IMG/VR virus record: IMGVR_UViG_3300019487_000051
Span: 1 to 43,094 of that record
Direction: 5' to 3' (one strand)
Source: a virus
Length of the DNA: 43,094 nucleotides
The first letter of the stretch is position 1; each line of letters begins with the position of its first letter. The translations under genes and the position numbers were made by a program. The notes beneath the pieces are model-generated. The model saw nothing but the letters and a program-made list of their open reading frames with translations, did not search any database and had not been told where the DNA came from. This document shows positions 39,919 to 40,447 of this stretch, one piece after another.

Positions 39919-39943
39919 TTAGAATGGGATGGCCGCTCAACGA
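39919..39943. repeat. 25-nt perfect direct repeat, copy 1 (ttagaatgggatggccgctcaacga)
   Basis: Identical 25-mer at 40934-40958. Confidence 0.9.
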
Positions 39944-40013
39944 ACTATTTTCAATGACCCGGTCATTGATCGTTAACTGTCCGTTCTTTGATTATCTCGT
40001 TGAAAACAAAGGA

Positions 40014-40038
40014 GTTAGCATCAATGAACGACCTTTTT
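40014..40038. repeat. Perfect 25-nt inverted repeat, left copy
   Basis: gttagcatcaatgaacgaccttttt. Exact reverse complement at 40252-40276. Confidence 0.95.
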
Positions 40039-40090
40039 GAAAAAATCGACAAAAATAGAATGTTTGTGTGTGTAGAGGTATAAAAGTTTG

Positions 40091-40130
40091 TTTGTATATG
40101 TTTGTATATGTTTGTATATGTTTGTATATA
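40091..40130. repeat. Four tandem 10-bp units TTTGTATATG (last unit ...TATA), iteron-like
   Basis: Read directly from lines 40081-40140. Confidence 0.95.
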
Positions 40131-40146
40131 TATATATATATATATA
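40125..40146. repeat. (TA)11 microsatellite
   Basis: Read directly. Confidence 0.95.
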
Positions 40147-40176
40147 CTCTCTCTCTCTCTCTCTCTCTCTCTCTCT
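40147..40176. repeat. (CT)15 polypyrimidine/polypurine mirror repeat
   Basis: Read directly. Confidence 0.95.
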
Positions 40177-40181
40177 ACTAT

Positions 40182-40199
40182 ACACATACACATACACAT
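40182..40199. repeat. (ACACAT)3
   Basis: Read directly. This CA-rich stretch mirrors the TG-rich left half of the core. Confidence 0.9.
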
Positions 40200-40251
40200 A
40201 CAACCGTATACATGTATAAACACTCTCCCGCGATGAGAGCCTGAAAAAGCG

Positions 40252-40276
40252 AAAAAGGTCGTTCATTGATGCTAAC
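40252..40276. repeat. Perfect 25-nt inverted repeat, right copy
   Basis: aaaaaggtcgttcattgatgctaac is the reverse complement of 40014-40038. Confidence 0.95.
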
Positions 40277-40447
40277 TCGTTTAGAATCAACGAGTTACAC
40301 AACGAACCGACAGTGTATGATCAAAGAACGGGTCATTGAAAAAAGACCATTGAGCGGACAGGAGATAGCAAAAAGTTTGGTTGACCTCACCAGGCGATAC
40401 GCTATATTCACGGTCCAGGTCTTGAACGACCAGACAAGATAAATTTC

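Follow-up and report, generated by a model that had tools for sequence, protein, structure and literature searches.

A mirrored cluster of short sites around a melting-prone microsatellite core in an uncultured tailed phage: a tentative replication origin

The window analysed here is the whole 43,094-nucleotide stretch of the IMG/VR virus record IMGVR_UViG_3300019487_000051, which derives from an uncultured tailed phage. In the zone from which its plus-strand and minus-strand gene blocks diverge lies an imperfect palindrome, referred to below as the element, which is non-coding, highly non-random and unique in the genome. The two inverted arms of the element carry copies of a 9-bp motif, TCAAnGAmC, at mirror positions and enclose a centre of simple repeats that contains the least stable duplex of the genome. 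The element is tentatively read as the bidirectional replication origin of the phage, a reading that is preferred here but held with less than even confidence. Most of the features described below can be accounted for by an origin with an initiator that makes contact with promoters as well. The competing readings are not fully exclusive, and origins often overlap regulatory regions.

The arms were delimited by an inverted-repeat search. Each is 109 nt long (39930-40038 and 40252-40360), they are 82% complementary (89/109) and 213 nt lie between them. A sequence-only reading of the same DNA had placed the inverted arms at 39927-40038 and 40252-40362; the arms themselves are confirmed and only their limits have moved. 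Their innermost 27 nt, not 25 nt as claimed there, are perfectly complementary. The simple-repeat core described in that reading was recovered by Tandem Repeats Finder as a 10-mer repeated 4.1 times, (TA)11, (CT)15 and ATACAC repeated 3.8 times. The statement that the core consists almost entirely of such repeats was too strong, since the arrays (40089-40202) account for 114 of its 213 bp and the remaining 99 bp are unique sequence with A-tracts. The same program found no other dinucleotide array in the 43 kb. The (TA)11 tract and its flanks form a 24-bp perfect palindrome (40124-40147). The rough symmetry attributed to the core holds in part: upon folding, the 10-mer repeats pair with the ATACAC repeats and the stem reaches into the core. 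The (CT)15 tract has no partner across the palindrome, and the centre is asymmetric. No credible open reading frame (ORF) crosses the core, as had been noted, and the ORFs found there translate low-complexity sequence. Coding arms were considered and rejected: a 38-residue ORF called in the left arm by one gene caller meets a stop codon in the mirror copy. The differences between the arms are distributed 11/5/4 by codon position, and the third-position bias is not significant.

The motif TCAAnGAmC occurs 18 times in the window versus 3.8 times expected, and none of 100 shuffles reached 18. Eight exact copies are found in the arms at mirror positions, together with four degenerate ones, and five copies are located at two perfect sigma-70-type promoters. 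Some of the arm copies are combined into 19-bp double sites; the pattern TCAAnGAmC-N-GkTCnTTGA has exactly two matches in the window, at 39951 and 40321. The arms differ at 2 of the 40 sites that correspond to the seven constrained positions of the motif, versus 18 of the 69 other positions (Fisher p = 0.009). Only 1 (plus strand) or 3 (minus strand) of the 20 arm mismatches are of the G:U type. The mismatches avoid the constrained motif positions and are not wobble-compatible, which indicates that selection acts on binding sites rather than on hairpin pairing. The cruciform proposed earlier, like hairpin pairing in general, is accordingly unsupported as the object of selection. The motif copies, which had escaped the earlier reader, appear from their sequence to be likelier protein-binding repeats than the 10-mers, and TCAATGACCCGGTCATTGA is a candidate binding sequence for the replicative helicase of the phage, for the winged-helix domain of this helicase, or for one of two small proteins encoded on either side of the element, orf76 and orf103.

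The single-stranded element nevertheless folds into one long hairpin, with a z of about -13 for DNA and RNA alike. If transcription read through from orf76, the plus-strand RNA would contain this long imperfect stem (z = -13), which might serve as an RNase III site, an insulator or a terminator between early units; the hairpin that follows orf76 lacks a U-tract, so that read-through is possible. Such an RNA element is nonetheless very unlikely. At 16 of the 20 arm mismatches neither strand allows even a G:U pair, conservation tracks the 9-bp motif and not pairing, and no Rfam family matches at its gathering score, the hits at E < 1 being low-complexity miRNA noise.

A search with TerS revealed a relative at 79-87% amino-acid identity, represented by two contigs, L029 and L030. 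These include the late promoter, a homologue of orf76, the hairpin, a left-arm homologue and, of the core, about 50 nt. The orf76 homologue is 74% identical, and its changes are biased to third codon positions. In L030 the hairpin after orf76 has another stem sequence but the same stability (-26 kcal/mol each). Since an arm homologue is present in the relative, the palindrome is older than the split between the two phages. In a three-way alignment of both window arms with the left arm of the relative, 31 of 42 constrained columns are invariant versus 32 of 62 elsewhere (p = 0.026). With respect to the conservation of arms versus core, which the sequence-only reading had suggested comparing, the left arm is homologous and its short sites are kept, the core being compared over about 50 nt only. 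Both contigs of the relative end exactly where the 10-mer array starts in the window, which suggests that the relative also has a low-complexity centre. Where the two window arms differ, the left arm of the relative agrees 12 times with the right arm of the window (as reverse complement) and twice with the left arm. This 12:2 ratio suggests either concerted evolution or gene conversion between the arms, or a recent drift of the left arm of the window.

The centre of the element is easily melted, as had been predicted. Positions 40051-40150 are the least stable 100 bp of the genome (nearest-neighbour dG, z = 6.2), and the minimum for 40 bp, at 40105-40144, is -36 kcal/mol, the mean over the genome being -57. 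Such low stability is in keeping with a DNA-unwinding element (DUE). The 10-bp units, which had been taken for iterons, are probably not such: they are confined to the core and the 10-mer TGTTTGTATA has no further occurrence in the genome; a search with it as the pattern matched only unrelated giant-virus contigs. They are probably part of the low-stability, low-complexity core. The (TG), (TA) and (ATACAC) tracts alternate purine and pyrimidine, and non-B structures are possible at these tracts and at (CT)15. The replication-origin idea of the earlier reading thus remains plausible and unproven; its DUE-like core stands and its iterons probably do not.

The phage encodes a helicase of the DUF3987 family. 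Kazlauskas et al. assigned DUF3987 proteins to helicase superfamily 6, as MCM-related replicative helicases with a winged helix-turn-helix domain at the C-terminus (PMC4889955). An AlphaFold (AF2) model of the phage protein, built with 33 homologues, has a pLDDT (predicted local distance difference test) of 85. Its best PDB matches in Foldseek are all eukaryotic or archaeal MCM helicases, with E-values down to 3e-10. The model places a winged helix at residues 380-445, with helices (H) and strands (S) in the order H-S-H-H-S-S, and the family profile matches the TFE winged helix weakly. The Rep helicases of the staphylococcal pathogenicity islands (SaPIs) recognise 6-12 short iterons by means of a C-terminal winged helix (PMC9371898). 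The iterons of the SaPI origin form two equal, oppositely oriented halves with an AT-rich region at the centre between them, where two hexamers are probably loaded (PMC9371898). No sequence similarity between the phage helicase and SaPI Rep was detected, and no other dedicated initiator family was found among the early genes.

In the origin reading, a phage protein would bind the TCAAnGAmC sites, five to six per arm, which are mirrored in position and orientation. The most economical candidate for this protein is the MCM-like DUF3987 helicase itself, which may use its C-terminal winged helix for contact with the DNA; alternatively, the role could fall to a small early DNA-binding protein, orf76 or orf103 for example. 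Two protein-DNA assemblies would face each other over the meltable centre of the spacer, comprised of the four 10-mers and (TA)11-13. Melting would permit two helicase rings to load in opposite directions, and the family-A polymerase would follow. The same protein, when bound at the -35 regions of the two consensus promoters, would couple replication to early and late transcription. Slippage in the (TA), (CT) and (ATACAC) tracts would be tolerated because these tracts would serve as spacer and unwinding DNA and not as recognition sequence. The element is situated at the divergence point of the transcription blocks, and the forks would therefore run co-directionally with transcription.

Among known systems, the element most resembles the split-iteron origins around a DUE, as in SaPIs; the palindromic origins of herpes simplex virus and SV40 offer an analogy. 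In common with SaPI origins, it has two opposed sets of short sites, eight exact and four degenerate, around an AT-rich centre that is prone to melting, and judging from the modelled fold the same genome provides an MCM-like helicase with a C-terminal winged helix. The SaPI iterons are 5-6 bp long, number 6-12 and flank a short AT-rich region that is not a microsatellite, whereas here 9-bp sites, partly paired into 19-bp palindromes, lie in 110-bp mirror arms separated by a spacer of 213-233 bp whose centre is a compound, length-variable microsatellite.

The origins oriS and oriL of herpes simplex virus and those of SV40 and papillomaviruses are palindromic, with inverted initiator sites flanking an A+T tract and helicases loaded head to head. 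The likeness is one of analogy only: these are viruses of eukaryotes, their initiators (UL9 and superfamily 3 helicases) are unrelated, and their palindromes measure 45-144 bp. The lambda origin has four 19-bp dyad-symmetric iterons, bound by O dimers, beside an AT-rich region. It shares with the element the 19-bp dyad-symmetric sites next to an easily melted tract, but it lies inside the O gene and its iterons are arranged in direct tandem on one side. A lambda-type origin was rejected, as the element is non-coding and no O/P-like family occurs among the early proteins. A DnaA-dependent origin was likewise discarded: TTWTNCACA, with up to one mismatch, has 46 matches versus 56 expected, and these do not cluster in the element. 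A hairpin telomere or telRL-type protelomerase site is at odds with the asymmetric centre, and no tyrosine-recombinase-like gene was found. The joined inverted terminal repeats of a protein-primed genome were also rejected: the polymerase belongs to family A, a helicase is present and the join is spanned by k = 141 contigs.

Several observations weigh against the origin. SaPI origins lie immediately downstream of rep, whereas the element is 0.6 kb from TerS and its helicase gene is 8.9 kb downstream on the circular map. The helicase module recurs in two phages, L021 and L022, with the genes in the same order and a helicase of about 35% identity; neither has a comparable palindrome, motif cluster or low-stability region in the loci compared, which extend to 10 kb upstream of the helicase. 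Relatives that share the structural module only have a non-coding repeat array at the same position, and a role in packaging or in late-gene function would account for this array no less well than an origin. A plain transcription factor would be consistent with motif copies that lie at -35 regions. About 230 bp separate the innermost sites, a far wider spacing than that of known iteron/DUE origins. The GC skew is confounded by gene orientation. We know of no origin in which (CT)n has a role.

The promoter-proximal motif copies lead to another reading, in which the element is an operator hub. A dimeric regulator, perhaps orf76 or orf103, would bind TCAAnGAmC in the arms and at two promoters, the late one and that at 41230, and looping among these three clusters would time the switch from early to late expression, the microsatellite core being only a flexible spacer. 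One copy, at 39388, overlaps the -35 hexamer of the late promoter and another, at 39418, lies upstream of it; three more, at 41182, 41194 and 41212, are directly upstream of the second perfect promoter. Both late-promoter copies are kept in the relative, where promoter-proximal copies have changed at the free position and nowhere else. A dimer could readily occupy the 19-bp palindromic double sites, and small conserved unannotated proteins flank the element. Such a hub leaves unexplained the twelve sites in a 110-bp mirror pair, their placement around the least stable DNA of the genome and the apparent retention of a low-complexity core in the relative. Besides, no DNA-binding family was detected in orf76 or orf103. 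It is judged rather unlikely. Both perfect promoters match the sigma-70 consensus at 12 of 12 positions and both are preceded by TCG, which gives TCGTTGACA; a promoter-like site at 40476 has TCGTTGAT. The shared extended -35 of these promoters overlaps the TCAACGA form of the arm motif.

The third reading arises from four relatives (L004, L006, L016 and L017) whose TerL is 59-64% identical. They share the structural module only and their early genes are unrelated, so the element was compared there by position and not by sequence. At that position each has a non-coding stretch of 700-1000 bp with its own repeats of about 20 nt in both orientations. In the P1 pac, sets of hexamers flank the cut, and in the SPP1 pac, TerS boxes lie on both sides of pacC. 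The element could be a terminase recognition region (a pac, a cos-like site or a terminal-repeat boundary), in which TerS would bind the motif on both sides and TerL would cut near the centre. It resembles P1 pac and SPP1 pacL/pacC/pacR in having short repeats on both sides of a processing region near the terminase genes, and its distance of 0.6 kb upstream of TerS, the persistence of an array in relatives that share the terminase and structural module, and the absence of one near the replication genes of the helicase-sharing relatives all fit. The known pac sites, however, are without a microsatellite centre, and the motif copies at two promoters would be unexpected in a packaging site. The melting-prone centre would go unexplained, and the late promoter and an opposite-strand gene intervene between the element and TerS. 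The assembly is circular with its 123-bp overlap in a gene, neither full assembly breaks at the element, and no similarity was detectable between TerS and its counterparts in the relatives with arrays. A terminase site is considered slightly less likely than the hub. The arrays of these relatives adjoin the gene of a conserved protein of 105-118 residues (…TTSPTGQxRLxQN…GTVKEITD…QDPxxVVMFYM…) that has no Pfam match. This gene is inverted relative to the array in L017 versus L016 and L004. The array and the adjoining protein may be a cognate protein-site pair. No homology between orf76 and this protein was found.

Microsatellites of this kind raise the question of whether the tract is real. The simple repeats resemble those of eukaryotes, and the element could be an assembly artefact or a decaying insertion similar to a miniature inverted-repeat transposable element (MITE), whose centre has been filled with slippage products. 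Exact-protein look-ups recovered the same phage from the ENA assembly ERZ27251177, as one contig of 42,984 bp, from Logan contigs of SRR7811987 and from a 738-bp contig of ERZ27251176. The Logan contigs, assembled with small k, stop inside the 10-mer array and resume inside the ATACAC array. The ENA contig k141_1000723 crosses the whole tract with unique sequence on both sides, and its arms are identical to those of the window. Because k = 141 exceeds the 66-nt TA+CT tract and crossing it requires reads that contain the tract, the join is real and the chimera that had been envisaged is dismissed. The arm and the edge of the core are also present in a second sample (L015) and in the diverged relative (two further data sets). 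No other copy of the arm was found beyond chance in the window, IMG/VR, the JGI metagenomes or 185,579 genomes; the 18 genome matches compare with about 17 expected by chance (17 fixed bases in 596 Gb). The region had no match among 50,697 phage records by megablast and blastn. A MITE or other mobile element was rejected: the inverted repeats occur without a target-site duplication and without dispersed copies. Together with the constraint on the motif positions, this makes an element with no function the least probable of all the explanations. The sole metagenome match is 22 nt exact to the inner arm (L020 314-335, Ga0214473_10083240), where it covers the ribosome-binding site and the initial codons (MNDLF…) of a winged-helix regulator gene that is unrelated, and is probably due to chance. 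In the left arm of the window the same bases form AAGGAG-N9-ATG followed by a 19-codon ORF.

The repeats are slippage-prone, as had been supposed, and the lengths of three tracts do differ between assemblies. The ENA contig has (TA)13 versus 11 in the window, (CT)20 versus 15 and (ATACAC)4 versus 3, so that its spacer measures 233 versus 213 bp. In the Logan assembly the ATACAC tract is likewise one unit longer than in the window, and the 10-mer array has four copies in both full assemblies. Outside the microsatellites, the assemblies match the window with 100% identity and may therefore derive from one read set, a point that also leaves some room for an artefact; in that case the length difference may reflect heterogeneity within the sample or the choice of the assembler and not divergence between samples. 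The suggestion that the tract acts as a length-variable switch fared poorly, since neither allele has a promoter-like site across (TA)n, and the tract is not traversed by any ORF. Its unusual character for a phage was upheld: of 2.9 million IMG/VR contigs, one contains a compound (TA)7(CT)8 pattern, and in a survey of mycobacteriophage genomes dinucleotide iterations did not exceed 9 (PMC6426759). Within IMG/VR, a (TA)n(CT)n compound is confined to L023 1-330 (IMGVR_UViG_3300020410_000028), where the tract is located at the contig end and precedes non-coding TTTTCGGGT / ACCCGAAAA repeats that run in either orientation. This GC-rich virus is unrelated and may represent another instance of a microsatellite with iteron-like repeats.

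Bacterial contingency loci are microsatellites in promoters or ORFs, such as (TA)n in the Haemophilus hif promoters. The element shares with such loci the perfect di- and hexanucleotide tracts that vary in length. A contingency promoter or ORF was rejected, as no promoter hexamers bracket (TA)n in either allele and there is no credible ORF. A different possibility is that the microsatellite is a functional, hypermutable part of the phage origin or of a replication-transcription hub, a contingency locus for the control of replication. Slippage would then alter the spacer length, the helical phase and the propensity for non-B DNA (cruciform, H-DNA, Z-DNA) between the mirrored arrays, and the population would carry heritable variants that differ in initiation or in early/late timing. 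The apparent retention of a low-complexity core in the relative, at about 20% DNA divergence, would fit selection for the tract. This proposal is regarded as quite improbable.

Origins of uncultured phages are almost never identified, and here a specific cis element can be paired with a specific candidate initiator. If the origin reading is confirmed, the SaPI logic of a self-loading helicase and split iterons would extend to a lineage of lytic phages with a family-A polymerase and 7-deazaguanine modification, and the unwinding region of an origin could then be a polymorphic compound microsatellite, whether tolerated or exploited. If the element is instead a terminase site or an operator hub, it would be an unusual but ordinary regulatory region. 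Microsatellites this long are very rare in phages, and the locus is therefore a natural marker of variation within the population. The positions of the features are collected in Table 1.

Table 1. Positions of the element, its parts and associated features (window coordinates unless a contig is named)
Feature	Position	Strand	Remarks
Left arm	39930..40038		motif sites 39937(+), 39951(+), 39961(-), 39983(-), 40021(+); degenerate 39997(-)
19-bp palindromic double site, left	39951..39969		TCAATGACC-C-GGTCATTGA, perfect palindrome
Inner-left core	40039..40088		unique, A-tracts and (TG)4; partly homologous to mirror side and to relative
TGTTTGTATA x4.1	40089..40129		10-bp period, 100% match (Tandem Repeats Finder)
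(TA)11	40125..40146		within the least stable 40 bp of the genome
(CT)15	40147..40176	+	homopyrimidine mirror repeat
(ATACAC)3.8	40180..40202		Tandem Repeats Finder
Inner-right core	40203..40251		unique, A-tracts
Right arm	40252..40360		motif sites 40261(-), 40321(+), 40331(-); 40299(+, 1 mismatch); degenerate 40287(+), 40345(-)
19-bp double site, right	40321..40339		TCAAAGAAC-G-GGTCATTGA; mirror position of 39951-39969
Late promoter TTGACA-18-TATAAT	39391-39362	-	faces TerS and late operon; region 39362..39426
Promoter TTGACA-17-TATAAT	41230-41258	+	perfect; region 41182..41258
orf76	39634..39864	+	small basic helical protein; gene immediately upstream of element
12-bp perfect hairpin	39876..39906	+	directly 3' of orf76 stop codon; no U-tract
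orf103	40540..40851	+	first gene downstream of element; Cys-rich N-terminal half and two C-terminal helices
DUF3987 / MCM-like replicative helicase, 449 aa	6167..7516	+	C-terminal winged helix; Pfam DUF3987
Arrays of TerL relatives	L004 3100-3950; L006 3450-4260; L016 1-1030; L017 5580-6340		TCGTAAC-type repeats, both orientations

The window is a circular assembly of about 42.97 kb unique length. Its ends share an exact 123-bp overlap (1-123 and 42972-43094) that lies inside the gene of a PD-(D/E)XK nuclease; the overlap is not a biological terminal repeat and the contig is circularised. The plus-strand block runs from 40540 past the end of the window to about 11600 and encodes the PD-(D/E)XK nuclease, a Sak4-like ATPase, QueC, FolE, QueD and QueE-like enzymes, a family-A polymerase fused to uracil-DNA glycosylase (UDG) and present in two pieces, and the DUF3987 helicase. 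The minus-strand block, from 39310 down to 11657, encodes TerS, TerL, an SU10-type portal and the capsid and tail proteins. No tRNA was found by a tRNA search.

The element belongs to the longest non-coding interval of the genome (675 bp). The order in the divergence zone is the TerS-facing promoter, orf76, the 12-bp hairpin, the element, two promoter-like sites and orf103. Protein family searches gave no match for orf76, which is an alternative candidate for the motif-binding protein. Orf103 has a weak Arc-like profile match (E = 0.008) and is a candidate DNA-binding protein; its single-sequence structure model is poor (pLDDT 60) and unusable for a structure search. The two promoter-like sites downstream of the element are located at 40381 (TTGACC-16-TATATT) and 40476. 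About 40 nt past the 40381 site and before the 40476-40504 promoter lies a hairpin with a perfect 8-bp stem (40448-40466), flanked by T-runs on either side. The stretch 40381-40473 could give a short transcript of about 55 nt or act as a bidirectional terminator or an attenuator.

At the junction of the genes for a crAss001_48/Sequestin-like protein and the PD-(D/E)XK nuclease there is a perfect 25-nt direct repeat (x1.9, 42248-42295). The regions 1722-2965, 8742-9970 and 10803-11264 encode QueC, GTP cyclohydrolase I and a radical-SAM (QueE-like) protein, and also a PTPS (QueD-like) protein and a dATP/dGTP diphosphohydrolase-like domain. This gene set suggests that the phage DNA carries a 7-deazaguanine modification; a transglycosylase was not identified alongside it. 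The family-A polymerase is split into a piece with the UDG, exonuclease and N-terminal polymerase parts (3018-4694) and a C-terminal polymerase piece (5332-6153), which are separated by a 113-residue ORF without a family match and 300 bp of non-coding DNA. In the relative L021 the polymerase is a single gene of 804 codons. The split may be due to an intervening mobile element, or the enzyme may be genuinely split.

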